Source: Acidobacteriota bacterium
GTDB lineage: Bacteria > Acidobacteriota > UBA890 > WLXD01
Direction: 5' to 3'
Assembly (NCBI GenBank): GCA_965205505.1
Contig: CBDBHB010000009.1
Location: 1,728,001-1,792,000 of the forward strand
DNA length: 64,000 nucleotides
The notes below the pieces were generated by a model. That model did not search any database, was not told where the DNA came from, and worked only from the letters and a program-made list of their open reading frames with translations. The translations under genes and the position numbers were made by a program. Shown here one piece after another: positions 12,805 to 29,157 of this stretch (the first letter of the stretch is position 1; every line of letters starts with the position of its first letter).

Positions 12805-13503
12805 TCAGTGGCCGTCCGAGCTCGCCGCCTCCGTCAGCGGTGGGTAGAACTGCACGAAGACGTTGTCGATCGCGCCGTGTTCCGCATGGCACGCGCCGCA
12901 GGCCGGGGTACCTACGCGACGGGCGACCCCAGACGTGTCGACGTTGAAGTAGGCCCAACCCCCGAAACGCTCGGTGTCCTTGATGGCGGCGTGGATGCCC
13001 TGAAGGTCTCCGGCGAACCAGCCGTCGCCGGCTATCGAGACGCCGGTCGTCGGCTCGCGCATCTCGAGGGCGAAGGTGGTGCCTTCCTTGAACTGCCCCG
13101 TCTGTCGGAAGTGGTGGTACGCACCAGGCTCAAGATAAACCTGGGTAAACACGCCAGGGTGATCCTGGCCGTTACGATCACCGCGCCGACGTGTTGCCGA
13201 GGTCTCACCATAGGCCAGGCCGGTGGCAGAGCCCACGAAGACCCACTCCCGGTACGCGTTTGGGAACTTCAAGTTCCCATCGACTCCGAAAGCGAGCGTG
13301 AAGGGCTCGGCGGCGAGCGCCGTCTGGCCGCTCGACGGCTCCGGGGTTGCTCGTAGCCAAGCGGCTCCGGCGCGCCCCCCCAGTTCCAGGAGGTCGACGC
13401 CGGCTCGCTTGAGCGGTCCGTACCCGGCGACGACAGCGACGGCCAGAAGACCGACGATGACGGCGCGCCCCCGATCCGGGGAGCGCTGCCGCGGGACATC
13501 CAT
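12805..13503 (-). CDS. Cytochrome P460 / c'-beta family protein
   Basis: [16 protein letters not shown]-terminal CGACH heme motif, DNVFVQFYP; N-terminal hydrophobic segment. Confidence 0.85.
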
Positions 13504-15840
13504 CAGTCTTGCCGCAGGGCGATGGCTGGGTCGACTGCTACAGCGCGGCGAGCCGGTATCACGATGGCGATCAGTGCGGCGGCGGCGAGCGCCAGTAGCG
13601 CGGTCGTGAAGGTGATGGGATCGCTCGGCTGAACCTCGAACAACAGTCCTCTGAGGACGCGACCGAAGGCGATCGCGCCGGCGAGTCCGATCGCCAGCCC
13701 GATGACCACCTGCACCATGCCCTGACGAACGACCATCCCCAGAATGCGCTGTCGCTGTGCACCTAGTGCCATCCGTAGGCCCATCTCGCGGGTTCGCTGC
13801 GTGATCGAGAACGCCATGACGCCGGCGATACCGGTTACCGTGACGATGAGCGCCAGGACGGCGAAGATGCCCAGTAGGGCGGCGGTCAGCCGCGGCGACG
13901 CTACTGCGTCGGCGCGCAGCGCGGCCATCGGATGCAGGTCGCTGATCGGGTTGGCGCCGAGAGCATAGGCGGCGTCCTTGACGCTCTGGCCAGCGCTTGC
14001 CGGATCACCCACCGTTCTTAGCATGAGCCACGTCGGCATGCCGGCCTGACCGAAGGGACGGTAGAACTCCGCCGTGACAGGTGTTTCCGGACCATAGATT
14101 CGTGTATCGCCCGCCACGCCGACGATCGTGATCCAGGTGTCGCCGTCATCGAAGCTGACGCGTGCACCGATCGGCTCCTCCTCGGACCAGTACAGCCGAG
14201 CGAGTGTCTCGTTGATTACCGCTACCGGGGCGGCGTTGGGCTCGTCGCGGCTATCTAGCAAGCGGCCGCTGAGCAGCGGAATCCCGAGGACCTCGAAATA
14301 CTCATGCGTGACGACGTTGAGGTCCAGCTGGGGTCGTGTCTGGGTCTCCTCAACGGCGCGTCCTTCGATGACGAAATCAGCCAGGTTCGGATTCGTCTGC
14401 CGGTACGGCGGCTTCTGCGTCAGCGCCGCGGTTCGCACCAAGGGACTGTCACCGACCGCAACGACCAGCTCTTGCAGGTAGTCGTGCATCTCGGTCATGT
14501 CGTTGAACGCCGTGAAGTCCAATGAAACCCGTGCGGTCAGCACGTGCTCGGTGTCGAAACCCGGGTCGATGGCTTGCAGCCGCAGGAGGCTGCGCAGCGT
14601 CAGGCCCGCACCGATCAGCAGAATGAACGCCAAGGCGACCTGCGCGACGATCAACGCACGGCGCAGCCGCAACCCACCGGTTGCGGTGGAGCGGGCTCCG
14701 TCCTTGATGGCGCCGCCGAGATCGCGCGTGCCGGGAAACGCCGGGAAGGTGCCGAAGGCGATGCCGGTGCCGAGCGAGATCAGCAACGTGAAGGCCAACG
14801 CCCAACCGTCGATGGTTACCGTCGCGGCGCGCGGCGTGTAGCGCCCGGCGAACTCGACGAGCATATCGAGTCCGACATAGGCGAACACCAAGCCGACTGC
14901 GCCACCGATTATCGCCAGGACCGCGCTCTCGGTGAACAGCTGGCGCATCAGGCGGACGCGGCTGGCGCCGAGTGCCGCGCGCACCGCCACTTCCTGTTCT
15001 CGACGCATCACGCGGGCCAAGCTCAGGTTGGCTACGTTGGCGCAGGCGATCAGCAGCACCAGCCCGGCGGTGGCCAGCAACATGAGCAGCACCGGTCGGG
15101 CGTTCCGGGTGAGCTCCTGCTTGAGGTCGACGACCCCCGCCGTGAGGTTCATCTCGGCTGGGTAGGCGTCGGGGAAGTCTGCTTCGAAGCGCGAAGCCAC
15201 GCTGGCGATCTCAGCGCTGGCGTTGCCAACCGTTGCGCCGCCCTGCAGCCGGCCGAAGACGAACAGGTTGCGGAAGGCGTTGCGGTTGCCCGCCATGTTG
15301 CGCTCTGCGTTGGCGCGGTACGGGCATGCAGAGGTTGGCATGTAGACGTCGACTGCGTTGGGGAACTGAGGAATCGGCGGTAGCACGCCTACTACGGTGT
15401 GCGGACGCGTGTTGACCTCGAACACCTGCCCGACGACGCCAGGATCTGCGCCGTGGGCGTTGCGCCAGTAGTCGTAGCTCAGAACTAGGACCGCCTCGGA
15501 GTCGAGGTCGTCCTCACCTTCCACGAACGTCCGTCCCAGCAACGGGGCCACCCCGAGCGTGTCGAAGAAATTGTCGGAAACGACACCGGCCTGGATTCGT
15601 TGCGGCTCATCCTTGCCGAGCAGCACGAAGAACATCGTGTGGTACTCGACTAACTCCTCGAAGCTGGTGGCTTGCTCACGGTAGTCGTAGAGCTCCGGGA
15701 TAGAGGCTTGGACGTTGGCGATCCGTGCGCCGGGCGCGGACTGCTCCAGCAGCACCAGCCGGTTGCCGTGCTCGTAGGGCAGAGGCCGAAGCAGTACCCC
15801 GTAGATGATGCTGAAGATAGCCGTATTGGCACCGATGCCG
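13503..15840 (-). pseudogene. ADOP-family (duplicated MacB-like) permease, 3' part after island insertion
   Basis: Begins at GIGANTAIFS; LLIACANVANL, RAALGASR and RTREMGLRMALGA motifs; the missing N-terminus lies at 27799-28125. Confidence 0.9.
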
Positions 15841-16079
15841 TCCGCCATAGTAATACAACTAAAGTATGTGTTTACAACAGTTTACAGGAACTTCTAGTGG
15901 ACTATCACCTCACTATTCCCACCATTAAATCTGGGAATAAAGCGAACTTCTCCGGACCTCTGGGGAGCCCTGAACACACCGAGCGCCGAGGCCGCAATCG
16001 CACCCGGGGCTGCAACTTCACCACGCATCGCTGCCTCTGATTGCCCTATCTTCGGGTCGCTAGCACAGGGAGCCGACCT

Positions 16080-16367
16080 TCACGGGCGCGCCCGAGCCGT
16101 ATCCTTCACCCGTCCTGCTCCTCCAGGTGCCCAGGGCACTGCCTGGTCCCATAGCGCCTCCAGGGCTTCGGTGTCGCCGGCAGCGCGGGCGCGTACGAGC
16201 GCTGCCAGGAGTGCCCCATCCATCCGGAACACGTCTGTGCGCCGGTACCAGGTCGGTGGCCCTCCAGCCGCGGTGAGCTCCACTGCCTGATCGGTCACGG
16301 ACAGCACACGCCGCAATGCGGCGCGCCCACCCGCCATGCGGCACACAACCAGCTGGCCTCTCTTCAT
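16080..16367 (-). CDS. Hypothetical protein (island cargo)
   Basis: 95-aa ORF with ATG start, divergent from the 16437 ORF; no recognised motif. Confidence 0.45.
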   Translation of the reverse strand: MKRGQLVVCRMAGGRAALRRVLSVTDQAVELTAAGGPPTWYRRTDVFRMDGALLAALVRARAAGDTEALEALWDQAVPWAPGGAGRVKDTARARP

Positions 16368-16436
16368 GCAGCACGATAAGAGCTTAAGCTAGGAAGTCTC
16401 GGGTGAACCCCTAACCTACTGACGAGAGACAAGGTA

Positions 16437-16877
16437 ATGGCTATCAGCAAGGCCGTTCGTGACGGACTCCAAGCAGAACAGGCGAGCGTTGCGGATGAGA
16501 TGGCTCAGCTTGAGGCACGGCTGCAGTGGCTGACAACACGACAGACCGCCCTCCGCTTAATCCTGGAACAAGAGGCAGCACCTCCGGAACAAAAGGCCCC
16601 GCCGGACACCGGATTACGTCGACTCGGTGTTCGTGATGGGGTTCGAGCGGTACTCAAGGAAGCTGGGGCGCTGAAACCTGCCCAGGTTACGCGGAGTCTG
16701 CGCGATTGTGGCTATCAGTTCAAAGGAAAGACGAAGCCGGGTGCGCGTGTCGGACAGGAGCTTTGGGCGATGGCCAAGTCGGGCACGCTGAGCAAGAACT
16801 CCGCTGGAGAGTACTTCTTGCCCGGTGAGGAACAAGACGAACCGGAGGGCTACGCCACCGCCGCCCAGCTCCGATGA
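16437..16877 (+). CDS. Hypothetical protein, coiled coil plus possible winged-helix domain
   Basis: Heptad-like N-terminus; C-terminal LKPAQVTRSL...LWAMAKSGTLSKNSAGEY resembles a wHTH; AAGG upstream. Confidence 0.55.
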   Translation: MAISKAVRDGLQAEQASVADEMAQLEARLQWLTTRQTALRLILEQEAAPPEQKAPPDTGLRRLGVRDGVRAVLKEAGALKPAQVTRSLRDCGYQFKGKTKPGARVGQELWAMAKSGTLSKNSAGEYFLPGEEQDEPEGYATAAQLR

Positions 16878-17218
16878 GGATGCCTCAGCCGTTGTCCGGA
16901 ACGAATCAGCCGGCGCAGGTGCGGACAGCGGTACCGAGGCAGAAGGGTCAGGAGCATCGAGTTGACGGTCTTGAGGTGGTGCTGGTGAGTTCCACTCCAT
17001 TCGATCCGTCACTGCCGGGTGATGGACCTTAGCCCCTTCGGTGGCGCTCAGGGTCCGGTGGCGTTTGTCTTTCACGACGGCGGCACGACGCCGCTCGATC
17101 TTTCCTTTCACTTCCTCGACGCCGATGGCGGTTCCGAAGTTACCCCGGAACTGTGCGCCGCCGAGACCGGTGGCCGCGTCCATGCATCTGCTCGAAGTCC
17201 GCGACGAGAAGTCGACCT

Positions 17219-17275
17219 TAGGTTCAGGACCTAGTGGGGGCAACCCCGTGGAGGTTCAAGTCCTCTCTTGGGCAC
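17219..17275 (+). pseudogene. tRNA-Leu(CAG) 3' fragment (anticodon arm to acceptor stem), att-site relic
   Basis: TAGGT-TCAGG-ACCTA anticodon arm, long variable arm GGGG-CAA-CCCC, GGTTCAAGTCC T-loop, CTTGGGCA acceptor strand; no D-arm or 5' strand upstream. Confidence 0.85.
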
Positions 17276-17425
17276 TTGATGTAACCTATTGACAGGTAAC
17301 GAGTTGCGGAAGGGAGCCGGCCGGCGCGGCCAGGTTCCTTTCGGCGTTTCAGGGCCAGAAAGTAACGAACAGGTAACGGGAGGCGCGTGTCCCGGCAGCG
17401 TAGCTCCGAACTGGAGCATCGCTCC

Positions 17426-17612
17426 TACTTCCTCCGGGCCGTTAGCTCAGTTGGCAGAGCACCGGCCTTTTAAACCTGCCCCGCCCGGTTTCCGGAACCC
17501 TGCAGCGACGGGCGATTCCGCGCTTTCTCCCGTCGACATGGCCACTTACGAGTTTACGTAGGGTTGCGCAGTTTACGCAGCTTTAGCTCCGCGTAAGGGC
17601 AAAACAAGGGCG
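17426..17612 (+). repeat. Copy 1 of ~190-bp repeat: tRNA-Lys(TTT) 5' half (17436-17473) fused to a non-tRNA tail
   Basis: GGGCCGTTAGCTCAGTTGGCAGAGCACCGGCCTTTTAA breaks off after the anticodon loop; tail has repeated GTTTACGYAG and AAGGGC motifs. Confidence 0.85.
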
Positions 17613-17859
17613 GCACGAGGGGCGCGACGCGGAAGGTGCCTGCTCTCGCCTACCCTGCTAACGCGCTCGCCGAGCCGACTCGGCCCGATCCAACGGACGC
17701 TCGCCCCGTAAGATTCCTGCCGTCTAATCAACGCTCGGGTCGGCGTAAGTTCCTGCATAGAAAGAAATTGACGACGGGCGCCCTGGTGCTACAGCCGTGG
17801 GGGCTGGTGTCGAACACGCGAACAACGGCGACCCAATGGGCAACAGACGCCAACGGTCA

Positions 17860-17977
17860 CAGCGGTAATGGATTACCGCGGACACTGTACGAGTACGCGT
17901 GCCACGAGGGGAACTACTCGCTCGCCAATACCCTGAGTGGCGCGCGCTATGAGGAGACCAGCGAGGAGAACAGATAG
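17860..17977 (+). pseudogene. 3' fragment of a conserved hypothetical gene (YEYACHEGNY family)
   Basis: LYEYACHEGNYSLANTLSGAR is a C-terminus I recognise from a widespread secreted hypothetical family; no intact 5' part. Confidence 0.55.
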
Positions 17978-18137
17978 CGCCGGTCGCCAGCGCGGGCGAC
18001 ATGGTACGGTGGCATGGCTCGATGCGTGGATGCTGCATTCGACCAAATGAGCTCACACAGACAGGAGAACGGCGATGGGCGACGATCGACACCGCGTGGA
18101 TCAGACAGGGCTACGAACCCCCGACAACACGCCGACG

Positions 18138-19337
18138 ATGCCGCGAGCAGGCCTGGCACTGGCGGGAGTGCTGGCGACTGTTCTGCTGGTGACGGTGTCT
18201 GTGCTGAGCACGACCGCGACCGTCGACGCAGCGTCGCATCCGCCGATCCAGGCGCAACAGTCGGGCGATGCCGCGATGCCCGACACCGATTCGATGAGCG
18301 ATGAGGAGTTCGTAACGCTGCTGGCGTCAGCAGAGCTGGGCCCCTACGCGCGTGAGGATGCTCTCGCCGATACGTTCTCGCTAGAGCGCGCCGTCAGCTT
18401 CCTCGATCGGGTTGCCCTGACATGGGGTGAGAAGTACGGCTGCGTCACCTGCCATACGAACGGTTTGTATCTCACGGCACCGCCCGAGATCTTCGGCGAG
18501 CGCCGTGCATTCGAGATCGTACACAGTCAGGCTGCCCGTTTCGTGCGCTCCTGGCGCGCCAACGACGTGCCTGGCAACGATGCGCCCGCCCCAGACGTGC
18601 CGGACGTCGTTGGCACGTCTGCGTTTCTGGCCATCAACGAGGCCCAGTCCGGTGAAAAAGAGCTCAGCGACATCACCGTGGAGGCGCTCGACCGCGCCTG
18701 GTCGCTACAGGACGAAGGGGGCCACTGGACTGGGTTTGTATCCAACTGGCCGCCGTTCTACGATCGCCAGTGGCCCGTCACGCTGATGGCGATCGCTACC
18801 GGCATGGCTCCGGGCGACTACGCCAGCACTGACGCCGCCGTGGAGGGGATGCGCAGGATTCGCGACCACATCGACGCGAACCCGCCCGAGTTCGCCCACA
18901 ACCGCGGCATGCTGCTGTGGGCCGGCAGCGTCAACGAGGGGCTGGTCAGCGACGCCGATCGCCAACGCTGGATCGACGAGCTTCTCGATCTGCAGCGTGA
19001 CGACGGTGGCTGGGCCTCGGGAAAGCTCGGCGTATGGCGTATGCGCAAGGGGCTCGACACCGATCCCCCGGTTACTGTCGAAAGTGATGGCTACGGCACC
19101 GGCTTCGTCATGTACGTCCTGCGACAGGCCGGCGTGCCGGCGTCGCACGCCGCGATCCAGCGCGGTGTCGGCTGGTTGAAGGCGAACCAGCGGGCCGGAG
19201 GGTACTGGTGGACCCAGTCCATACGCAATAGCTTCACAACCTCGAACTTCCTGACGCACGCCGGCACGACGTTCGCGGTCAAGGCGCTCGCGGCCTCTAC
19301 GATCGAAACGGGAGGCGTCGCCAACACCGAGCGTTGA
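18138..19337 (+). CDS. Exported prenyltransferase / squalene-cyclase-repeat protein with a CxxCH motif
   Basis: Hydrophobic N-terminus, GCVTCHTN, QW repeats (LQDEGGHW, LQRDDGGW, NQRAGGYW), SDGYGTG; an upstream start at 18075 is also possible. Confidence 0.75.
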   Translation: MPRAGLALAGVLATVLLVTVSVLSTTATVDAASHPPIQAQQSGDAAMPDTDSMSDEEFVTLLASAELGPYAREDALADTFSLERAVSFLDRVALTWGEKYGCVTCHTNGLYLTAPPEIFGERRAFEIVHSQAARFVRSWRANDVPGNDAPAPDVPDVVGTSAFLAINEAQSGEKELSDITVEALDRAWSLQDEGGHWTGFVSNWPPFYDRQWPVTLMAIATGMAPGDYASTDAAVEGMRRIRDHIDANPPEFAHNRGMLLWAGSVNEGLVSDADRQRWIDELLDLQRDDGGWASGKLGVWRMRKGLDTDPPVTVESDGYGTGFVMYVLRQAGVPASHAAIQRGVGWLKANQRAGGYWWTQSIRNSFTTSNFLTHAGTTFAVKALAASTIETGGVANTER

Positions 19338-19427
19338 GCGCCACCCCCGAACGTGCTGATCGTCGGCGTTGACACTCGGCCGTCCGCCGTAGCGAAGACT
19401 CGTAACGCCGTGCCGCGCGAGCGCTTA

Positions 19428-19616
19428 TACTTCCTCCGGGCCGTTAGCTCAGTTGGCAGAGCACCGGCCTTTTTAAACCTGCCCCGCCCGATTCCGGGAA
19501 CCCTGCAGCCATCGGCGTTTACGTGTTTTCCATAGCTGACATGGCCACTTACGAGTTTACGTAGGTTTGCGCAGTTTACGCAGCTTTAGCTCCGCGTAAG
19601 GGCAGAACAATGGGCG
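19428..19616 (+). repeat. Copy 2 of ~190-bp tRNA-Lys 5'-half repeat
   Basis: Same head (one extra T in the loop) and near-identical tail GACATGGCCACTTACGAGTTTACGTAGG...GCGTAAGGGCA; central part diverged. Confidence 0.85.
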
Positions 19617-19906
19617 TTTCGCGAAAGAGGCAGGGCTCGGTCGTAGGTCCCGGACCGTCCGTTGCGGTCGTACCGCCGCAACTCGCCGTCGTCACGACCG
19701 CCCGGCAATCGAATACCGCTCTGGCCGGGCGGTCAGTGGTGCCAGCCGTTACTTCGGAACCCCGAGGCGCCGTCTGAGCTACGGCCTCAACCGGGCCATT
19801 CCCCCGAGAACGTGGTCCATCAAAACGACGGATCAGTTGCGGTCGCCTCGGGGGTCGCCGATCCCGCCAGTCCGCCGTTCGAGCCCCTCGCGTTACCGTG
19901 CAGGGC

Positions 19907-21109
19907 TCACCAGATTTCAGCCTCTACGAGGATCCTGGGAGGGTCATAGTCATCCGCTCCCGGGTGAGTCTGGAGGATCTCGCGCAGGCGACGGACCGCC
20001 AACAAGGCTGCGTGAACCAGATGGTACTCGTTGTCCATGAGGGTAGGGTCATACTCATTCTCATCGAGAGCATGCGCTGGTCTGTTTCGCTCATTCCTGA
20101 CGTCCTTTAGCGCGCTGATGACGACGCACCGCTCTTCAGTCGCGTGTTCAAAAGCGACCTCCAGAAACTCCCCCAGCAGCCGGATCGTTCCTTTCTCCTT
20201 AATGATGACCCCGTCGTCAGTCTCGGTTCTTGTCTGCAGATCCACCTTGCCCCTGAAGAACCTCTTGTTCAGGTTGTCGGACAGCATCTTGTCGGCCGTG
20301 AGCGCGAGGTCCTGGTAACTTCGGAGGGTGGGCTTGGTTATCCAGGCGAACTGCGCCGGCGCCCCGCTGGCGAAGTTCTCGCGGAACAGAGGAGGCTCTC
20401 TGATCAGTTCACAGATGACATTGATCTGTTGAATCTCCTGGACGACGGCCTCGAAGGGAGATAGGCGGTTCGCAAACTCCCCTTCAACGCTCGTCTTGAA
20501 GTAATCCGAGTCCAGGAGCAGCCCCTCCCGGTCGACCTCGTATGATTTCCAGTGCAGCTGATGCTCAACGTTCGCCTCTGCGAGATCTGCGAGAATCGCC
20601 GTTACAAACCGCGCGCTCCCCCCGTCGCTGTACGCTGCCCCCCACCGAACGTAGATCTTCCCCGGGTCTGCTAGGCCGCGCTCACGAATATAGTCGCTCC
20701 GCCGGACAACGAAGCCGGAAACCCCGGACTCGTCGAACCGATATCGCGGATCATCGCGGTACCGTTCGAGCGCTTGGCGATCGAAGAAGAAATCCTCAAC
20801 TTGTGACCCACTGTGCCGCAGCGCCTTTGTGTAGGGGCCCAGCTCGTCACCTGCCATGGGATCTCTAGGCTCAAGAAGCAATGCGGTCGGGAACACCCAT
20901 AGCTCGTCTCGCCCTTCGGGGATGCGAACGAGACCTTCTTCCGCGAGAGCTCTGACTGCGTCAGAAACAGCTTCTGAGGCTCTCGACGAGTGTGAGCGCT
21001 CGTCGACCAGTGTTACGAGCTTCCAGAGTGGGATGCCACAATGAGGGTGGCCCTCGAGCCACGAGTAGGCGATCGCATCGGCTACCACTTCCTTGAGGTG
21101 GCGGGTCAC
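19907..21109 (-). CDS. Conserved hypothetical protein with C-terminal HEPN-like RxxxxH motif (possible defence nuclease)
   Basis: 400 aa, AGGAG RBS, lower GC than flanks, RNERNRPAH in a helical C-terminus. Confidence 0.6.
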   Translation of the reverse strand: MTRHLKEVVADAIAYSWLEGHPHCGIPLWKLVTLVDERSHSSRASEAVSDAVRALAEEGLVRIPEGRDELWVFPTALLLEPRDPMAGDELGPYTKALRHSGSQVEDFFFDRQALERYRDDPRYRFDESGVSGFVVRRSDYIRERGLADPGKIYVRWGAAYSDGGSARFVTAILADLAEANVEHQLHWKSYEVDREGLLLDSDYFKTSVEGEFANRLSPFEAVVQEIQQINVICELIREPPLFRENFASGAPAQFAWITKPTLRSYQDLALTADKMLSDNLNKRFFRGKVDLQTRTETDDGVIIKEKGTIRLLGEFLEVAFEHATEERCVVISALKDVRNERNRPAHALDENEYDPTLMDNEYHLVHAALLAVRRLREILQTHPGADDYDPPRILVEAEIW

Positions 21110-21570
21110 CTCTCTTCCTCCTTTAGATCAATGGGGATGGCGAGCGCTCGCGCTTGACTCGCCGTGTCTGAGATCCGCATTGGCGAACCCCCTTGGTTGA
21201 CGGTGGCGCGCCGCGGATCGGCTAAACGCTTCCACGTGCATGGCTGCTACTCTGCCGGGAAGCTCGGGAAGCTCGGGAAGCGACAACCCTACTCTTGGAG
21301 CCGGCTAGACAACACCCTTGTTCCCTCTCGCTTACGTGATCTCTGCCCTCGTGCTGCCCTCACGTTGGATCGCTGCGCTGGCCTGGATGTGAGTACCCGA
21401 GGCTTCGCAAGGCTCGCAGTCGATCCGCTCACCGCGCTACGGTTGCGCAATGAGCAAGCGTCTTGAAGGTAGTGAACCCCTTCACAGATCTGGTGTACCG
21501 GTTGGTGCTACGGCCAACGATTTCTGGCAGTGGTCGTGACCTGACCCCACGGTTAGTACCACGTCTTATC

Positions 21571-22455
21571 TCAGTAACTCGGTGCTGACAAGGGGTTGTT
21601 GAGGCCGGCGAAGCGGAGCGTAGCCGGCTTCAACAACAGCGCCTCCGGGGCCGGTGGTCGGTAGCCCAACGAGCTGTGCGGTCGCATGCGGTTGTACTGC
21701 TGCCTCCATCTCTCGATCAGAACCTTTGCCTCCTTGAGCGTGTAGAAGATCTCGCCGTTGAGCAGCTCGTCTCGGAGCTTGCCGTTGAAGCTCTCCACGT
21801 AGCCGTTCTCCCACGGCGAGCCCGGCTCGATGAACAGCGTGCCCACACCGAGCCTACCGAGCCAGTCGCGAACCGCCTCGGCGGTGAACTCCGGTCCGTT
21901 ATCGGACCGGATGTGCTCAGGTATGCCCCGGTGCACGAACAACCACCCGAGCCGCTCGAGCACGTCCTCACAGTTGAGCTTCCGTGCCACGTCGATCGCC
22001 AGGCTTTCTCGTGTGTACTCATCGACGATCGTCAGCAGCCTCATAGCCCGACCCTCGTGCGTCCGGTGATGAACGAAGTCATACGCCCAGACGTGATCTT
22101 TGCGCTGTGGTCGCAGCCGGATGCACGAGCCATCGCTGAGCCACAGCCGGGCTCGTTTGGGCTGCTTTGTCGGTACTTTCAGCCCCTCACGCCTCCAGAT
22201 ACGCTGCACTCGTTTGTGGTTCACCCACCAGCCCTCCATACGCAACAACGCCGTCACTCGCCGATACCCGTAGCGCCCGTATTGTCGGGCTAGATCCACG
22301 ATCCGCTCCGTCAACATCTGCTCATCGCCCGGTTCTCTTGGCATGTACCTGTGTGTCGTGCGTGGTTGTTTCAGTACCCGGCACGCCCGCCTCTCGGAGA
22401 CGCCCAGCCGCCCCCGTACATGCGCCACCGCCTCGCGCCGTCGAGCTGGGCTCAG
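21571..22455 (-). CDS. IS3 transposase OrfB (DDE), reached by -1 frameshift
   Basis: [35 protein letters not shown] and RPHSSLGY. Confidence 0.93.
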
Positions 22456-22730
22456 AAGTTTCCCTCCGCGACTTCCTTCAGGATCGACAGGTCGAGCTCT
22501 TTCTCCGCCACCAGTTTCTTGAGCCGGGCGTTTTCTTTCTCCAGCTGCTTGAGCCTTCTGGCCTGGTTGACCTTCAGCCCCCCGTACTCCCGCCGCCACC
22601 GATAGTAGGTGTGCTCGGTGATCGCTAGCTTGCGGCAGGCATCCTTGACCGTCCCGCCTTGCGCCAGCTCCACTTCAGCCTCCCGGAGCTTGCGTACGAT
22701 CTGCTCGGCGCTGTGCCTCTTCGTCGGCAT
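22452..22730 (-). CDS. IS3 transposase OrfA (HTH)
   Basis: [22 protein letters not shown] and [13 protein letters not shown]; GGAGG RBS. Confidence 0.93.
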
Positions 22731-23187
22731 TCTGACCTCCCCTTTTCGACCCAGATCGTGAGATTACCTCTGGATCCGTTTTGGGGGGTCAGGTCACGTA
22801 CGCGACGGCCATGCCCTGCAGGGCGGTCGCAACACCGCCGAACGCCACCGTCGTCTTCTGACCGCAGCGGCGATAGCGAGCGTTGCCAAGATATGGGGAC
22901 CCGCTAATTCGCTTCAGCTCGCTATCCTCTAAGTGCCTCATCGGCAACCCTCATCGCGCGCCATCGCTCGCACTTCGTCTGCGTCAGCAGCGCTCACGAT
23001 CCACTCCGCGGCGGTCAGCGTCTCGAGGTCCCGGCCCCACCATTGCCGGAGATTCTCGAGTGCCTCGTCCTCTGGCCAGCGCTCACCGTCGAAGTCCGCC
23101 ACCAGGGCCACCGCACCGAGGAACTGCTGCCGCGAGCCGATCATCCCGTACAACTCCGCGAACTCGTAATCCACCCGAAGAGGCCAC

Positions 23188-23424
23188 TGTCGCACGGTTG
23201 TCGCAGTGATTCGAGCGGCTGCTGCACCCTCCTGTCGCACGGTTGTCGCAGGATTTGTCGCAGGCTCGGGGACAGCGGAATTCCGCTGCAACACCCGTAG
23301 TGCCGCCTCTTTCGCCCTCACGCCCTGCCTCCTTGTGTCGCACGGTTGTCGCACCGCTTTGTCGCACCGGCACGCATTCGTTGTCGCACAGTCGCACCCC
23401 CCTATGGGGGTGCAGACTGCGACA
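23188..23424. repeat. Iteron array, putative replication origin of the island
   Basis: Nine direct TGTCGCA copies (23188, 23199, 23233, 23244, 23256, 23336, 23347, 23360, 23382), one inverted copy (23418) and a GCACCCCC-CTAT-GGGGGTGC palindrome, directly downstream of the helicase gene. Confidence 0.8.
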
Positions 23425-23448
23425 CGTGCAACGGCGGGACGGAACGCC

Positions 23449-24852
23449 CTATTTGTCATCGAGGCTTCCCTCGGCGATCGCTGCTCGCCTGTGCCTGTAG
23501 ATGGTTGCTCGATGGAGACGGAGCTCGGAGGCCACAGCGCCCGGAGACAAACCATCGTTTAGCAACTCAATGACACGCTGCCGTGTCTGACCTTCGACGT
23601 CGGCGACGAGCCAGCTCATGAAGCCGTTCTCGTCGGTCGCGAGTTGCGCTTCGAATGAAGCTGCGTCGCCGCCGCTGAGCCCCCTGGCTTTCTCGAACCG
23701 AACCTCGAACCGGGCGCCATCCTCAGCCCGGTAGTCGCCCGGGCGCTGAAGCTTGACCACCACATCGAGAACATCCTCCCGGCGAGAGGTACCGCGCTGA
23801 GCACCGTTCTTGCCAGCGTGGTGCACGAGGAGGACGGCCACTCCTCGCCGCCTCAACCCCAGTAGAAGATCCTGAGCGGGTCCCCATGCTTCGGCCTCGT
23901 TCTCCGGACCGGCTCCGAACAACGTGGAAATATTGTCGAAGACTACGAGCTTGGCGTCCCCAAGGATCGCGTCGATGAGGCGCTCCCCCTCCGGGCTATC
24001 GAGCGCAGGCACCGGGATCTCCTGGGCGTCCGCGGCGAGGATTCGGAACGGGATTCTCGCGGTGTCGACGTCCGGAGCCAGCCCGGCGAGGAGATGACTC
24101 GTGCGCGTCTGTAAAGTTTCGATAGGCATCTCGCCATCGACGTAAAGCACAGGCGCCGGCTCAGCTGCCTTCCAGCCCATCACCGTTTGCCCGGTCGCAA
24201 CGCCGAGCGCAATGGAGAGCGCTACCCACGTCTTGCCGGTCCCGCGATTCGCGTACAGCAGGGCCAAGTCCTTCTCATAGAACCAAGGCGACAAGAGGGG
24301 CTGGCGAGGGGGTAGACGAAGTTCGAGATAGTCCGCGAGTTCATACACCCGGAACCGTTCCGCGGCACGGCCCGCACCGTTTGCGATCGCCGCGATGGCC
24401 TGCTGGGCTCCCAAGAGGACTACCTCAGGATCCGCGCCCGGGTCCATCGCCATGTTGCGGATAGTCTCTGCCTCGGCGATGGCGTCGCGCAGGATCGCTT
24501 TGTCCTTGATGCTGCGCGCGTACTGCTCGACGTTGGCCGCCGCCGGGATACCGTCGATGAGGCCGGAGATGTACGCCGCGCCGCCGGCGCGCTCGAGCAC
24601 GTCGCGTCGGGTCAGCTCCTCGCGCAGCGTCACCGTGTTGATAGTCTCCGAGCGCCTCGAGATCGCGCCCATTGCCTCATAGATCAGCCGATTGGCGTCG
24701 CCGAAGAAGTCGTCCGGAGTCAGGATCTGCGTGGCGGTGTTGAACGCCTGGTTGTCGAGCAACACCGCGCCGAGGATCGCCCGCTCGGCCTCGTCGAAGT
24801 GCGGCAGCGCGCGCTCCTCGTGCCGTGTCCGGACTTGACGCAGCCGCCCCAC
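23449..24852 (-). CDS. DnaB N-terminal domain fused to AAA_25/RepA-like helicase with C-terminal HTH
   Basis: LPHFDEAERAILGAVLLDN, Walker A ANRGTGKT, VLYVDGEM, VVFDNIS and LLVHHAGK; GTG start coupled to the upstream stop. Confidence 0.85.
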   Translation of the reverse strand: MGRLRQVRTRHEERALPHFDEAERAILGAVLLDNQAFNTATQILTPDDFFGDANRLIYEAMGAISRRSETINTVTLREELTRRDVLERAGGAAYISGLIDGIPAAANVEQYARSIKDKAILRDAIAEAETIRNMAMDPGADPEVVLLGAQQAIAAIANGAGRAAERFRVYELADYLELRLPPRQPLLSPWFYEKDLALLYANRGTGKTWVALSIALGVATGQTVMGWKAAEPAPVLYVDGEMPIETLQTRTSHLLAGLAPDVDTARIPFRILAADAQEIPVPALDSPEGERLIDAILGDAKLVVFDNISTLFGAGPENEAEAWGPAQDLLLGLRRRGVAVLLVHHAGKNGAQRGTSRREDVLDVVVKLQRPGDYRAEDGARFEVRFEKARGLSGGDAASFEAQLATDENGFMSWLVADVEGQTRQRVIELLNDGLSPGAVASELRLHRATIYRHRRAAIAEGSLDDK

Positions 24853-25103
24853 TACGCGACCTCGCCTCGGTCGCCGACACAGGCGGTACCGTTGAGCCCG
24901 TTGGGCTGTCGAATGTCCAGACCCCGGCCCGCTAGGGCCTCCAGGACCGCCTCCTGCATGCATCCGGCGTGACAGTGCAACAAGCACCTGCCCGTCGCGC
25001 TCAGGCTCGGGTTGCGGTCCTTGTGCGCCGGGCGGCGGCACATGCCGCCATGTCCGTTGGATCGGCGCTCGAGCGTGCGGACGATCTGCTCCAGGCTGGC
25101 CAC
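24852..25103 (-). CDS. Primase-type zinc-binding domain (possibly degenerate)
   Basis: CRRPAHKDRNPSLS...HCHAGC pattern typical of satellite primase N-termini. Confidence 0.65.
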   Translation of the reverse strand: MASLEQIVRTLERRSNGHGGMCRRPAHKDRNPSLSATGRCLLHCHAGCMQEAVLEALAGRGLDIRQPNGLNGTACVGDRGEVA

Positions 25104-25104
25104 G

Positions 25105-25329
25105 TCACGTTGACGGCTGGCGAGAGGCAGGCTGATCGCCCCCCGGCAGCGCGGTCGGACGGCTCGCTAACCACGCCTTGATGTCCGCCAGCCGCCAGGC
25201 TACGGCACGGCGGCCGATACGCACCGGACGGGGAAACTCCCCCGCATCCATCGCAGCATAGATCGCTGACCTGGAAAGTAGCGTGATCCGCTCGACTTCA
25301 GGACGCTTGATGAGGACTTGCTGCTCCAT
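25105..25329 (-). CDS. alpA: AlpA-family excisionase/regulator
   Basis: EVERITLLSRSAIY..MDAGEFPRPVRIGRRAVAW; GGAGG RBS. Confidence 0.92.
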   Translation of the reverse strand: MEQQVLIKRPEVERITLLSRSAIYAAMDAGEFPRPVRIGRRAVAWRLADIKAWLASRPTALPGGDQPASRQPST

Positions 25330-25440
25330 GAGGAACCTCCTTGGTTTTGCTGGTTCCTCCCACTGTGCAGGGGTACCTCTGGCCTGTCATGGGTGCGAGT
25401 TTCCGAAAACTCGCCCCCTCGGCCAGCGTGGCGCAACCGA

Positions 25441-26091
25441 CTACCGATTACCCCGCCATATGTCGCGCATGGTGCCGTACGTTTTCACAGCGTGGTCTCT
25501 TTCGGCGAGCACCTGGGCCACAATGTCGCAGGCGGAGGCACGCTCGGTAATTTCATTGCGCGTCTCAGGCATACCGCACTTCGTAAGCAGGTGGACCGCC
25601 CATCGGATTACGTCATTTCGCGCGGCCATCTTGGGGGCCGGCCCTCTGCTGCCCTTGCCGCCTTTCGGTCGCGGACACCGGCCGTGGATTACGTCGCCCA
25701 CCCAACGGTGCAGGGCTTTCCCGAGTGGACGTTCGCCTTCGGTGCGCACGAACGTCCACGCCAGCGCGTCCCAATCTACGGGGTTAGTACGTGATCCTTC
25801 GATAGTGGATTCGATATCCTCGCGCAGGGTCTTGTCTTTGCCCCGAAGAAACAACGCAGCGTACATCCATACGTTGTAGTTGTGGGCGATCGCTGGGTTT
25901 CTCCACGACGGGTCCAGGTCGAGCCACAAGCCCACAAGCGCACGCGCATCGTCGTTGGAAATGCGCTCTTTCTTATCAATGAATCGTGCCACGTGCTCGC
26001 GGTGTTGACGGTGAAACTCATCGTTCCGGGCTTTGTCTAGGACGGCACGCACAGGCAACACTGGTTGCCTCGCGCGCTCTTCTTCACCCAT
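25441..26091 (-). CDS. Hypothetical protein between int and alpA
   Basis: ~216-aa ORF at a position typical of satellite regulators; start uncertain. Confidence 0.55.
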   Translation of the reverse strand: MGEEERARQPVLPVRAVLDKARNDEFHRQHREHVARFIDKKERISNDDARALVGLWLDLDPSWRNPAIAHNYNVWMYAALFLRGKDKTLREDIESTIEGSRTNPVDWDALAWTFVRTEGERPLGKALHRWVGDVIHGRCPRPKGGKGSRGPAPKMAARNDVIRWAVHLLTKCGMPETRNEITERASACDIVAQVLAERDHAVKTYGTMRDIWRGNR

Positions 26092-26395
26092 GAGCAAGCA
26101 CCGGCACGATGGTCTGGATCGGGGCGGGCAACCTGGAGTGCGGCCCGAGCCCACTGATCAATGCGTACAGCAGCATCAGGCCCAGGATGACGGCCGGGAT
26201 CAGCCTCAGCACGCGGCCCGAAAGGTTGATCATGGGCGGGCGGAGATCGCCCATCCGCACGTTGCCGAGCTCACCTCTGTCCATATCATCTCTCCGTAGG
26301 CACGGGGGCGGTGGGGTAGACACGTCTTCAGGGTAGCGTGCGTGGCCGTGTGCCAACCCACTTCAGCAGGCAGGGAACCGACCCGGTACTGCTCC

Positions 26396-27649
26396 CTAGA
26401 CAGGGCGCAGCATCGGCACCACCTTGCCGCCCTCAGCACTCAGGTAAGCGGCCCAGTCTTCCATCAGCTGCCGGCGCCGCTCCAGCAGGTCGGAGCGCGC
26501 ATAGGCCGCCTCGGTCGGGTCGCGCACCGCATGTGCCAGCGCCGCCTCCATGACCGCCCGCGGTGCGTTGGTGCACTCCGCCGCCCAGTCCCGGAACGAT
26601 GAGCGAAACCCGTGCGGCACCGCTTCAATGCCCAGCTGCCGCAGCACCCGGGAAAGGGTCGCGTCCGCCAGCGGCCTGCCGGCCCGTGCACCGGGAAACA
26701 CCAGCCCCTCGCCATCCCTGAGCCCCCGCGCCTGGCGCAGGATCTCCATTGCCCGGCCCGATAGCGGCACCCGGTGGGCCCGGTTCGATTTCATGCGCTC
26801 GGGTGCAAGAGTCCACTCCCTCGCCTCCAGGTCCATCTCCTGCCAGGTAGCCAACCGCACCTCGCCGGAGCGGGCCGCCGTCAACACCAGAAACTCCAGG
26901 GCCAGCTTCACCACCCCGGAGGCATCCGAAGCCCGTACCGCCTCGATCGCACCGTCCACCTCGGCATGCGGCAACGCCCGCATATGCTGTCGCCGCTTGC
27001 GGTGCCGTGGCAGCGCCTGGGTGATCGCCTCACCAGCCGGGTTGTCGCCACGGTACCCCTGCGCCATGGCCCACTTCATCACCGCACCGATGCGCGCCCG
27101 CACCCGCCGTGCGGTCTCGGCCTTGTCATGCCAGATCGGACCCAGTACCTCCAACACCTCGGCCGTCGTCACCTCCGACACCGGCATCTCACCGATGCGC
27201 CCGTACGCATAGGTGCGCAACTCCGTTTTCCATTGCGCCGCATACTTGGCGTTGCGCCACCCGGGGCGGTGCATCTCATACACCTTGGCCGCTGCTTGCG
27301 CGAACGTCGGCATGCCCTCGGCCCGGCGCTTGTCTGTCAGCGGGTCACCGCCGGCACGGGCCAGCTTGCGGTTGGCAAATGCCACCTCGCGCGCCTCCGA
27401 CAGCGACACCAAGGGGTAGCCTCCGAGACCCAGTTCCCGGCGACGGCCCTGGATCACGATCCGCTGTACCCAGCTGCGCGCTCCGCTCGGGATCACGTTC
27501 AGGTACAGGCCGTGTCCATCGCAGTACCGGCCCGGCTTCATTACCGTGCGTACGAACGCCGCCGACAGGGCCCGCTCCGGGTGCTTGCCGCTCTTGCGCC
27601 GAGGGCTGGGTTTCGGTGCAGTTGCTTGCGCATCGGCGATATTCTGCAT
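26396..27649 (-). CDS. Tyrosine integrase, P4/IntA type
   Basis: Arm-binding DGHGLYL...GLGGYPLVSLSEARE; catalytic ARSGE, MKSNRAH, HGFRSSFRDW, LAH and AY. Confidence 0.95.
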   Translation of the reverse strand: MQNIADAQATAPKPSPRRKSGKHPERALSAAFVRTVMKPGRYCDGHGLYLNVIPSGARSWVQRIVIQGRRRELGLGGYPLVSLSEAREVAFANRKLARAGGDPLTDKRRAEGMPTFAQAAAKVYEMHRPGWRNAKYAAQWKTELRTYAYGRIGEMPVSEVTTAEVLEVLGPIWHDKAETARRVRARIGAVMKWAMAQGYRGDNPAGEAITQALPRHRKRRQHMRALPHAEVDGAIEAVRASDASGVVKLALEFLVLTAARSGEVRLATWQEMDLEAREWTLAPERMKSNRAHRVPLSGRAMEILRQARGLRDGEGLVFPGARAGRPLADATLSRVLRQLGIEAVPHGFRSSFRDWAAECTNAPRAVMEAALAHAVRDPTEAAYARSDLLERRRQLMEDWAAYLSAEGGKVVPMLRPV

Positions 27650-27798
27650 CCCCCTCTTATTCCGCCATTAAAGGCGGGAATGTAGCGGATTGTCCGGGAA
27701 CACGCAAGATGGACGAATACTCGTAACTGTCTGACTCTACTGATGCTTAGGGACTAATAGGTCAACTTAGGAATGCACCGGATCTGAACGATGGCAGA

Positions 27799-28125
27799 GA
27801 TGCCGAGCGCCAATGTGAGCACCGCCGTGGCGGTGAATCCCCAGCTCTTGCCGAGCGTCCTAAGTGCGTAGCGGATGTCTTGTATCAGCATGTCGAAGTG
27901 GTTCCCCTTGCGCTCGTCGCGGCACTCTTCCTTGAAGCGCTGCGTGGCGCCGAAGCTCATGCGAGCCTTCCGCTGGGCTTCCTCGTGGCCCAGGCCCTGG
28001 TGTCGGTACTTGTCGGTTTCCATCTCGAGGTGGAACGACAGCTCGTCGTCGAGCTCTCGATCGTCCGCCCGTCGCCCGTCGCCGCGCAATCGCTCCAGCA
28101 AGTCTCCCCAAGCTCTCTTGCCCAT
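27799..28125 (-). pseudogene. ADOP-family permease, 5' part (interrupted by the island)
   Basis: [12 protein letters not shown] permease prefix; [26 protein letters not shown] then breaks at the att core. Confidence 0.92.
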
Positions 28126-28134
28126 CCGTAGCCT

Positions 28135-28467
28135 CTAGACCGTTTGCAGGATCGCGCTCACCGCTCGCGAGAGCCGATCCCAGTTGCGTGCTTCATCCGC
28201 CAGCTGCTCTTTTCCCATGGTGGTCAGTCGGTAGTACTTGGCGCGTCGGTTGTTCTCCGAGGTGCCCCACTCCGCGCCGATGTAGCCGTGCCGTTGCAGT
28301 CGATGGAGGGCCGGATAGAGCGAGCCTTGGTTGACTTGCAGAACGTCCCTGGACATCTGCTGGATACGCTGCGAGACGCCCCAACCATGCTGCGGGGCAA
28401 GTTGCAGGGTTTTGAGGATGAGCATGTCCAGGGTGCCCTGGAGCAGGTCGACGTTGGCCTTGGTCAT
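28135..28467 (-). CDS. PadR-family regulator (acidobacterial type)
   Basis: LLQGTLDMLILK, QGSLYPALHRL and SENNRRAKYYRLT. Confidence 0.93.
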   Translation of the reverse strand: MTKANVDLLQGTLDMLILKTLQLAPQHGWGVSQRIQQMSRDVLQVNQGSLYPALHRLQRHGYIGAEWGTSENNRRAKYYRLTTMGKEQLADEARNWDRLSRAVSAILQTV

Positions 28468-28545
28468 TGGCTCTTCTCGCGTAGTTCGTCTACGGGAAAT
28501 CGATGGTCATCGTGTCCAGCACCTTGACGCTCATGCGCGCCCGTT

Positions 28546-28596
28546 CCTCTAGACACTCGACAAGAGTGACCCGGGCTCTTGTCGCGTGTCAAGGGG
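28546..28596. promoter_or_regulatory. Inverted pair of 21-bp sites, probable PadR operators with a -35 box
   Basis: CCTCTAGACACTCGACAAGAG and the reverse complement of CTCTTGTCGCGTGTCAAGGGG are near-identical; the latter contains TTGACA on the minus strand. Confidence 0.55.
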
Positions 28597-28742
28597 AGTC
28601 GAGGATTTTGCTGCCGGAAGCGGTTATCGGCGCCCTCATCGCCGCCAGCATCGACTCCCACGAGGCAACTGCAATGCGTTCGTGCGCCCATCCTGGACAG
28701 TACGGTGGCAGCTACGCTCGATCCCCAGCGCTGCTGCATAGC

Positions 28743-28811
28743 TTGACAAAGTGGGGCTGTCGCTCATATGGTCTGCTGAGCCGACTAAATAGACTGAGCC
28801 GACCAAATAGA
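28743..28811 (+). promoter_or_regulatory. Sigma70-like promoter followed by an 18-bp tandem repeat (probable operators)
   Basis: TTGACA-N18-TATGGT; CTGAGCCGACYAAATAGA x2 at 28776-28811 before the padR start. Confidence 0.55.
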
Positions 28812-28830
28812 CGATGAGATAACACAAACC

Positions 28831-29157
28831 ATGCCTACTGCGTTGGGTGAGCTTGAGACCCTCGTGCTGCTGGCCACGCTGCGGCTGGGGGAGGGCGCGT
28901 ATGGGGTCTCGATCCGCGACGAGATTCGGGATCGGACCGGGCGGGCGCTGAGCCGGGGAGCCATCTATAGCACCATCACGAGGCTCCAACGCCGCGACTG
29001 TCTGACCTCCGCGATGGGAGAGCCGACGCCGGTCCGCGGCGGCCGCGCCAAGCGATATTTCTCCGTCACGGATTCCGGGTTAGGCGCGATTCGAGCTTCC
29101 ACCCGCGCCGTCGATCAGATGCGGGACGGTCTCGATACCGTGCTGACAGGAGGCTGA
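28831..29157 (+). CDS. PadR-family regulator
   Basis: LGELETLVLLA, AYGVSIRDEI and PTPVRGGRAKRYF. Confidence 0.9.
   Translation: MPTALGELETLVLLATLRLGEGAYGVSIRDEIRDRTGRALSRGAIYSTITRLQRRDCLTSAMGEPTPVRGGRAKRYFSVTDSGLGAIRASTRAVDQMRDGLDTVLTGG

Follow-up and report, generated by a model that had tools for sequence, protein, structure and literature searches.

An integrative element splits an ADOP permease gene

We analyzed a 64,000-nucleotide stretch of an Acidobacteriota bacterium genome (assembly GCA_965205505.1, contig CBDBHB010000009.1, positions 1,728,001 to 1,792,000; hereafter the window), in which a permease gene of the ADOP family is split within its LALGIGANT codons by an inserted element. 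The element measures 11.96 kb (15841-27798) and lies between two copies of a 7-bp overlap, CGGCATC. Since the gene lies on the minus strand, junction sequences are read in that orientation, with P' denoting the integrase-proximal and P the integrase-distal end of the element. The source genome (G000) comprises nine contigs and 5.98 Mb; other places in it are given as contig and position (for example C8:465.7k), and a prefix is added where another genome is meant. The features that carry the analysis are the following.

27754-28125, minus strand: ADOP permease N-part; the open reading frame enters the element for 15 codons and then stops
27806-27814, minus strand: host core arm B of attL, ATTGGCGCT, Leu-Ala-Leu codons
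27799-27805, minus strand: 7-bp overlap copy 1, CGGCATC, same as copy 2
27791-27798, minus strand: element core arm P', TCTGCCAT, integrase-proximal, common to eight copies in G000 and one in the sister species G003
26396-27649, minus strand: tyrosine integrase of 417 amino acids, P4/CP4-57 architecture, with R260, H346-x-x-R349 and Y383
25105-25329, minus strand: AlpA-type excisionase/regulator of 74 amino acids (PF05930, 7.4e-17, 61.4 bits against a cut-off of 21; phrog_2790 and phrog_66, excisionase)
15841-15848, minus strand: element core arm P, ATGGCGGA, integrase-distal, giving the permease C-part an in-frame ATG
15834-15840, minus strand: 7-bp overlap copy 2, CGGCATC
15825-15833, minus strand: host core arm B' of attR, GGTGCCAAT, Gly-Ala-Asn codons
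13503-15848, minus strand: ADOP permease C-part, an open reading frame of 781 amino acids starting MADGIGANT (TIGR03434, MacB_PCD, FtsX)

Read in gene orientation, attL consists of ATTGGCGCT (27814-27806), CGGCATC (27805-27799) and TCTGCCAT (27798-27791), while attR consists of ATGGCGGA (15848-15841), CGGCATC (15840-15834) and GGTGCCAAT (15833-15825). The attB and attP strings of the original prediction, which had been made from the window's sequence, are the reverse complements of these halves, and all of its sequence statements were verified. When 15841-27805 was removed in silico, so that 28125..27799 joined 15833..13503, the expected in-frame gene of 2658 nt was recovered, with 885 codons plus a stop and the motif LTLALGIGANTAIFS regained across the joint. 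Both pieces belong to the ADOP family TIGR03434 in an NCBIfam profile search: the C-part alone scored 830.8 bits against a cut-off of 622.3, covering profile positions 27-803 with two stretches each of MacB_PCD and FtsX, which places it within the family, and the N-part covers positions 1-34 and carries a permease-prefix domain (perm_prefix_1). ARAGORN and Rfam found no tRNA or tmRNA at either window junction, both of which lie inside the ADOP gene, and the G+C content of the element is not distinct from its surroundings.

Four sister species of the genus (G003, G005, G004 and G002) have the orthologous permease with no interruption at the site. The G003 orthologue is 96% identical at the amino acid level, has an open frame of 888 amino acids and is continuous through the site at the DNA level (...GCGCT-TGGCATC-GGCGCCAAC...). 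Since the orthologous sites are empty in sister species and the same type of junction occurs at other ADOP paralogues, as set out below, the junctions reflect more than chance.

We found the three domains of the P4/CP4-57 architecture in the integrase (Arm-DNA-bind_3 PF13356, 1.3e-18; Phage_int_M PF22022, 2.3e-27; Phage_integrase PF00589, 5e-16), and an alignment of the copies in G000 showed that R260, H346, R349 and Y383 are present in all four full-length ones. The earlier assignment to the P4 type thus held with regard to domains and catalytic residues, at a score (144.6 bits) below the curated cut-off of 434 for NCBIfam PRK09692. Judged by its domains and this score, the integrase is a distant member of the P4/CP4-57 architecture outside the PRK09692 subfamily.

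The same codons are cut in other ADOP paralogues

G000 carries four full-length integrase genes of 98-100% identity and one decayed copy, as well as further paralogues at 80% (two copies), 69% and 63% identity, the 80% pair sharing only about 2.1 kb. A genome search with both element ends returned eight P' ends and eight P ends, the latter of two sequence types. The P' end is joined in forward orientation to an ADOP N-part at four places, each cut after ...LALG(I/L): the window (C9:1755.8k), C8:465.7k, C9:918.7k and C9:2186.5k. Besides the window, an ADOP C-part starting GANT or GANS is joined to a P end at C2:18.3k and C9:3151.9k. One insertion is reversed, with the P' end at C8:640.4k adjoining an ADOP C-part and the P end at C8:534.9k adjoining an ADOP N-part; these halves correspond to a single intact gene in G003, where they match C15:568783-569412 and C15:569406-571784, adjacent to one another with an exact 7-bp overlap. 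An ADOP N-part at C8:943.4k was also considered as an element-cut gene and set aside, having been broken by something else.

Intact orthologues of the other interrupted genes lie at separate loci in the sister species: that of the 465k gene in G004 and G005, and in G003 those of the 918k gene (C15:1.58M), the 2186k gene (on C11) and the 3151.9k gene (on C8). Since the orthologues of six interrupted genes are intact at six separate sister-species loci, at least six different ADOP genes have been cut. Altogether at least six, and probably seven, of about 52 ADOP paralogues are cut at exactly these codons, while about 45 are intact across the site. G003 itself holds a complete copy of 14.07 kb (C5:110242-124308) with a 7/7 repeat, inserted forward in a further ADOP paralogue, which makes a ninth insertion. 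These results bear out the proposal that ADOP permeases, as an expanded paralogue family, offer a multi-copy protein motif as a landing site, given its recurrence at six or more paralogues in G000 and one in G003. A one-off use of a secondary site does not agree with eight integrase-proximal ends in the genome and repeated ADOP hits.

Three integrases of G000 (C8:464476-465510, C8:639175-640209 and C9:2186679-2187713) share one in-frame deletion of residues 221-292, by which R260 is lost. That R260-deleted integrases are present at three different ADOP sites suggests either that full-length copies mobilized these elements in trans or that gene conversion took place.

Both element ends (ATGGCGGA and the complement of TCTGCCAT) put an in-frame ATG or GTG before the permease C-part, in either orientation. 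The starts made in this way are MADGIGANT, MAEGIGANS, VADGIGANT and MAEVIGANT (window 15846-15848; C2:18287, C9:3151922 and C8:640351), and no ribosome-binding site was evident at these element-supplied starts.

ADOP sites are probably preferred among potential targets

Some insertions lie outside ADOP genes. A complete copy of 16.6 kb (C9:331560-348209) is flanked by an arginase-family gene on one side and a ThuA-like gene on the other, at the site GACGGCAGT-(T/G)TGATTG-ACAGCCGTC, an inverted pair around 7 bp. At C8:550.7k a P' end cuts an MscS-family gene that is intact in G003, where the far arm of the site is degenerate (ACCA instead of GCCA). There are two other non-ADOP flanks, at a P' end (C9:3139.9k) and a P end (C9:2199.7k); in G003, conservation of the former breaks off before the junction.

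These sites make it reasonable to ask whether the integrase recognizes only the loose palindrome YGGC-N13-GCCR, ADOP genes being struck because they are numerous and dispensable, with no preference for the motif. The complete non-ADOP insertion at C9:331.6-348.2k has both junctions and keeps the GGC/GCC arms, the other well-mapped one, in the MscS-like gene, has a degenerate far arm, and several ADOP genes have also been broken by other events such as insertion sequence copies, which suggests that ADOP genes may be dispensable. On the other hand, seven of 11 distinct flank loci are ADOP genes, while the loose palindrome, the loosest motif covering all clear sites, has 5522 strand hits in the genome and only 60 in ADOP N-regions (binomial P = 5.7e-12). 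For the stricter motif TGGCR-N11-YGCCA, 34 of 268 strand hits are in ADOP N-regions (binomial P = 1.1e-4 for seven or more of 11). Both values depend on how flanks are grouped into loci, and the bias may be heightened by selection against insertions at other places. When the overlap is further set to NGGNATC, 12 of 14 strand hits lie in ADOP genes, the hits including the junctions themselves. Among the 45 intact paralogues, 14 have both arms and seven of these also have an NGGNATC overlap; with seven such sites occupied and seven intact, about half of the best ADOP sites are already taken. Since selection against other sites could not yield the exact codon position either, we regard recognition of the loose palindrome with no ADOP preference as improbable.

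We conclude that the ADOP codons are probably the preferred partner, as their over-representation in the motif count, which the original prediction had proposed as a check, indicates (7/11 flank loci as against 34/268 motif hits). The claim that these codons are the target needs to be restated, since what is targeted is a DNA palindrome with a matching 7-bp overlap and not the gene as such.

Overlap sequences and the mode of recombination

We compared the overlaps of the four insertions that have both junctions on matched flanks. The two 7-mers are identical in the window (CGGCATC / CGGCATC, 7/7) and in the G003 insertion (CGGTTTG / CGGTTTG, 7/7), and agree at six of seven positions at C9:331k (TTGATTG / GTGATTG) and in the reverse ADOP insertion (GATCACC / GATCCCC, in integrase orientation). 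The four complete insertions thus have four different overlaps, and since the 7-mers within each insertion are nearly identical, a reaction that tolerates heterology, as in Tn916, is disfavored. On the N-part side of the reverse insertion the 7-mer matches the native G003 sequence, while that of the other junction is one base off, and this variant, GATCACC, is also found at the unrelated P' junction C9:3139.9k. Since the same variant occurs at an unrelated P' junction and only one junction of the reverse insertion is native, we take the 7-mer to be carried along by the element rather than derived from the target.

The 7-bp repeats might instead be target-site duplications of a transposition-like mechanism, the 8-bp ends being terminal inverted repeats. 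The element ends are inverted repeats at seven of eight positions, and the 7-mers are the same at both ends and unrelated between insertions (CGGCATC, CGGTTTG, TGATTG-type, GATCMCC), just as duplication would give. However, the sole transposase is that of a nested IS3 copy, which has separate ends, the integrase and AlpA are encoded beside an end with a conserved arm of about 150 bp, and GATCACC recurs at two unrelated P' junctions. That only one junction of the reverse insertion is native fits a segregated mismatched overlap. The element has neither a transposase of its own nor a flanking repeat that always derives from the target, as a DDE transposon would, and we consider target-site duplication very unlikely.

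We are confident, though short of certain, that a roughly 12-kb element moves by site-specific recombination of the lambda/P4 type with the ADOP LALGIGAN codons as its preferred partner. The parts would be a heterobivalent tyrosine integrase, an AlpA-type directionality factor and the att sites, recombination being carried out by Int and AlpA. The core would be an inverted pair of (A/Y)TGGCR arms around the 7-bp overlap. The preferred attB would be the stretch of DNA encoding L-A-L-G-I-G-A-N, where the first membrane helix of ADOP permeases begins; its Leu-Ala and Ala-Asn codons would form the arms (TGGCG...YGCCA) and its Gly-Ile codons (NGGNATC) the overlap. Since the genome holds about 52 paralogues, many alternative attB sites are available to the element, and its spread within the genome would be transposon-like, in either orientation, with one paralogue inactivated per insertion. 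Strand exchange would require near identity of the attP and attB overlaps (six or seven of seven positions), and a mismatched overlap segregating after strand exchange would leave the pattern of the reverse insertion. Overlaps among ADOP paralogues differ by single bases (CGGCATC, CGGTATC, CGGAATC, CGGGATC, TGGCATC and GGGGATC), which makes stepwise drift among ADOP sites possible; the carried overlap would change over time and so allow a step from one paralogue to another.

Several points weigh against this mechanism. Two to four insertions lie outside ADOP genes, and stepwise drift accounts neither for these nor for the reverse orientation. The complete insertions have four unrelated overlaps, and a strict homology rule does not explain the switch between them. 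Flanks are mismatched at several copies, for example at C8:550.7k, where the P' end is in the MscS-like gene and the P end in an ADOP gene, at C9:2186k and at C9:3140k, so that some junctions reflect later rearrangement, decay or misassembly and the counts of events are approximate. The C-part on C2 has no orthologue in the sister genomes, and only dissimilarity marks it as a seventh gene. The integrase lacks R260 in three copies, and the G000 assembly contains no attP.

Taken with these amendments, namely that both orientations are used, that the 7-bp overlap varies and that only the clade of at least 97% identity shows this target, the interpretation first put forward is supported. We lean slightly toward a broader picture, in which one young integrase lineage would use the palindromic codons of a roughly 50-copy family as distributed sites in both orientations. 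In that picture the overlap would evolve stepwise along synonymous variation, and the element would proliferate like a transposon, be mobilized in trans when its integrase is deleted, and bracket and move 100-kb blocks of the chromosome.

Relatives of the integrase

To map the flanks of relatives, as the original prediction had proposed, we examined 63 flank loci, with L013-L016 left out as duplicates of the G000 copies. A hidden Markov model of the ADOP N-region, built from 38 of the genome's paralogues, was applied to flanks of 1.5-3 kb; some contigs end before the junction. In a 401-genome sample of the phylum, and in the family (11 genomes), order (26) and class (26), the integrase clade of at least 97% identity was found only in G000 and G003. 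The relatives include 18 loci on genome contigs at 30-56% identity and 19 on metagenome contigs, where full-length matches reach 40-56% and one 28-residue end fragment (L053) reaches 71%. A scan of viral contigs did not find the P' end. An ADOP N-part was found at one of the 63 loci, L011, which is the G003 copy, and at none of the 62 loci of more distant relatives (30-81% identity) in the flank test.

Five relatives adjoin tRNA-Ser, tRNA-Arg or tRNA-Glu genes. Three others at 59-61% identity (L062, L074 and L075, in G261, G324 and G066) each adjoin the 3' end of the same conserved gene, which ends ...FVFALPE, and this sister branch may use another protein-coding target. The wider acidobacterial integrase clade (53-71% identity) often has several copies per genome. 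The proposed link between this integrase and ADOP sites thus holds for the clade of at least 97% identity, which sits mostly at ADOP sites and never beside a tRNA gene, and does not extend to relatives at 30-81%. ADOP specificity belongs to one young branch of the integrase clade.

The tRNA-associated relatives also bear on whether an integrase that normally targets a tRNA gene entered the window's permease gene by a single accident, using it as a secondary site. Some relatives at 45-53% identity do lie beside tRNA-Ser or tRNA-Arg genes, and the nearest phage integrases are only about 43% identical (in two of the top three, Ralstonia phage RSY1 and Acidovorax phage Acica, the annotation places an AlpA-type gene under the match). 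Set against the eight to nine independent ADOP junction sets in two species, and against the lack of any copy of the clade of at least 97% identity beside a tRNA gene, such an accident is extremely improbable, and we retain recombination with ADOP codons as the preferred partner.

Comparison with known elements

Islands of the P4/CP4-57 type usually integrate into the 3' part of a tRNA or tmRNA gene and restore that gene. The window element resembles them in its three-domain integrase, AlpA-type excisionase and small replication/helicase module, as well as in the position of the integrase about 150 bp from one end and the inverted core arms around a 7-bp overlap. Unlike these islands, it cuts a protein-coding gene near the 5' end, leaves it unrestored and does not have a tRNA or tmRNA gene as attB.

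SXT targets prfC, GIsul2 targets guaA, SGI1 lies in trmE and other islands in dusA. The integrases of these elements are related to the P4-like kind, and elements in such single-copy genes usually supply a replacement gene end. Conserved coding sequence serves as attB in these cases as it does here. However, their targets are single-copy, whereas here the target is a motif of about 52 paralogues with many coexisting copies in both orientations, cut in the first membrane helix. Reports in the literature, in the portions available to us, describe trmE and dusA as integrase targets (PMC8409611) and site-specific recombination by the GIsul2 integrase, the available portion of the latter naming no target gene (PMC9376610).

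The available text of a study of Klebsiella describes asparagine tDNAs as several equivalent attB sites in one genome (PMC4891358). Those tRNA copies are identical and stay functional, while here the overlaps differ between sites and protein genes are inactivated. Tn916 and CTnDOT are tyrosine-recombinase transposons with many target sites and intragenomic spread, which tolerate heterology and have coupling sequences that differ at the two ends. The element described here differs from them in that all four complete insertions have six or seven of seven identical positions, rather than differing coupling sequences.

An acidobacterium with many near-identical integrase genes has been described, with no target reported in the accessible part of that paper (PMC3469429). 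In line with the original prediction, which knew of no such target, we found no account of the ADOP motif as an integrase target in the literature searched; mapped-island databases such as TIGER/Islander, whose description was available in part (PMC12424338), and supplements may hold cases. Nor did that literature describe any case in which a motif conserved across an expanded protein family supplies a set of attachment sites; the type of element is itself of a known kind.

Descriptions of site-specific integrases usually give them a single address in a genome. The element described here instead has as its address a short palindrome in coding DNA that recurs throughout a large and apparently redundant gene family, which provides a route for integrative elements to multiply in a genome and drive rearrangements. 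The findings suggest that expanded paralogue families in Acidobacteriota may be safe harbors for mobile DNA, and excision of an element could switch individual permeases back on. The sites form a natural attB series with the same arms and different overlaps, so that rules of overlap homology and orientation are directly testable, and the integrase has many ready-made landing sites in a hard-to-engineer phylum.

Public reads and rearranged copies

Contigs from four public runs, all short, were compared with window positions 13000-29000. Among the joints listed, none skipped 15.84k-27.8k and none closed a circle, a result that weighs neither way on excision. A contig of X11 crosses the distal junction with no difference. 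Judging from its sequence, the element may still be active today. Contigs of X14 and X15, which come from two other studies, match the window in the permease C-part and the P core arm and from 15849 onward are unlike its element; another variant of the element may occupy the same site in related strains.

The reverse-interrupted ADOP gene (G000:C8:534928-640358), which is intact in G003, holds an insert of 105.4 kb bounded by the P end of one copy, with a full-length integrase, and the P' end of another, with a deleted integrase. The middle 87 kb is mostly unique, so that tandem duplication was rejected as its origin, and begins with an MscS-like gene, which lies 48 kb upstream of this ADOP gene in G003; part of the 87 kb matches G003:C15:476-481k at 99%. 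The insert may have arisen as a composite unit, by rearrangement between copies or through misassembly. At G000:C8:352690-352740, a type-2 P end is followed by 2 bp and then a 12-bp P' remnant, an attP-like arrangement with a collapsed spacer that may be the scar of a tandem pair.

Cargo and arms of the window element

The remaining features of the element and its surroundings are as follows.

28135-28467, minus strand: PadR-family regulator, host context outside the element, upstream of the split permease (TIGR03433 padR_acidobact, 154.1 bits against a cut-off of 101.8; PF03551)
27659-27680, minus strand: candidate arm-type binding module in the P' arm, TTCCC..TTTAATGG..GGAAT, directly upstream of the integrase start
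25441-26154, minus strand: protein of 237 amino acids with no family match in Pfam, NCBIfam or PHROG; its DNA is conserved adjoining the integrase gene in other copies
23449-25041, minus strand: helicase-like replication protein of 530 amino acids with a DnaB N-terminal domain, AAA_25 and a C-terminal helix-turn-helix
21537-22796, minus strand: nested IS3-family insertion sequence, orfA 22452-22730, orfB 21571-22599 (transpos_IS3, 237.5 bits; HTH_Tnp_1)
19907-21109, minus strand: cargo protein of 400 amino acids, no family match
17420-19616, plus strand: cargo cassette, with a secreted squalene-cyclase-like repeat protein of 420 amino acids at 18075-19337 between 195-bp direct repeats
16437-16877, plus strand: protein of 146 amino acids, no known family, conserved distal module
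15915-15937, minus strand: candidate arm-type module, second copy, in the P arm

The 22-23-bp module TTCCC..TTTAATGG..GGAAT lies 120-145 bp from the core in the P' arm and 70-97 bp from it in the P arm. Its pattern has 10 matches in the genome, every one in the arms of this element, and the modules are candidate arm-type sites that the integrase may bind.

The 195-bp direct repeats of the cassette are 88% alike, and their starts (17434-17473 and about 19436-19476) are the 5' half of tRNA-Lys(UUU) up to the anticodon loop. ARAGORN and Rfam found no whole tRNA in the repeats, which look like the scar of another, tRNA-targeting element inside the window element. Many metagenome contigs run on at 17473 with the 3' half of the tRNA.

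The 1.26-kb IS3-family sequence has about 19 copies in the genome at 99% identity or more, and several ADOP genes elsewhere are truncated beside such copies (for example C8:622993-624996 beside C8:625009). In each of the four public runs compared, depth over a 32-bp stretch of the window (17885-17917) runs into the thousands, with contigs diverging on either side, and the stretch is either a very common short repeat or a conserved motif.

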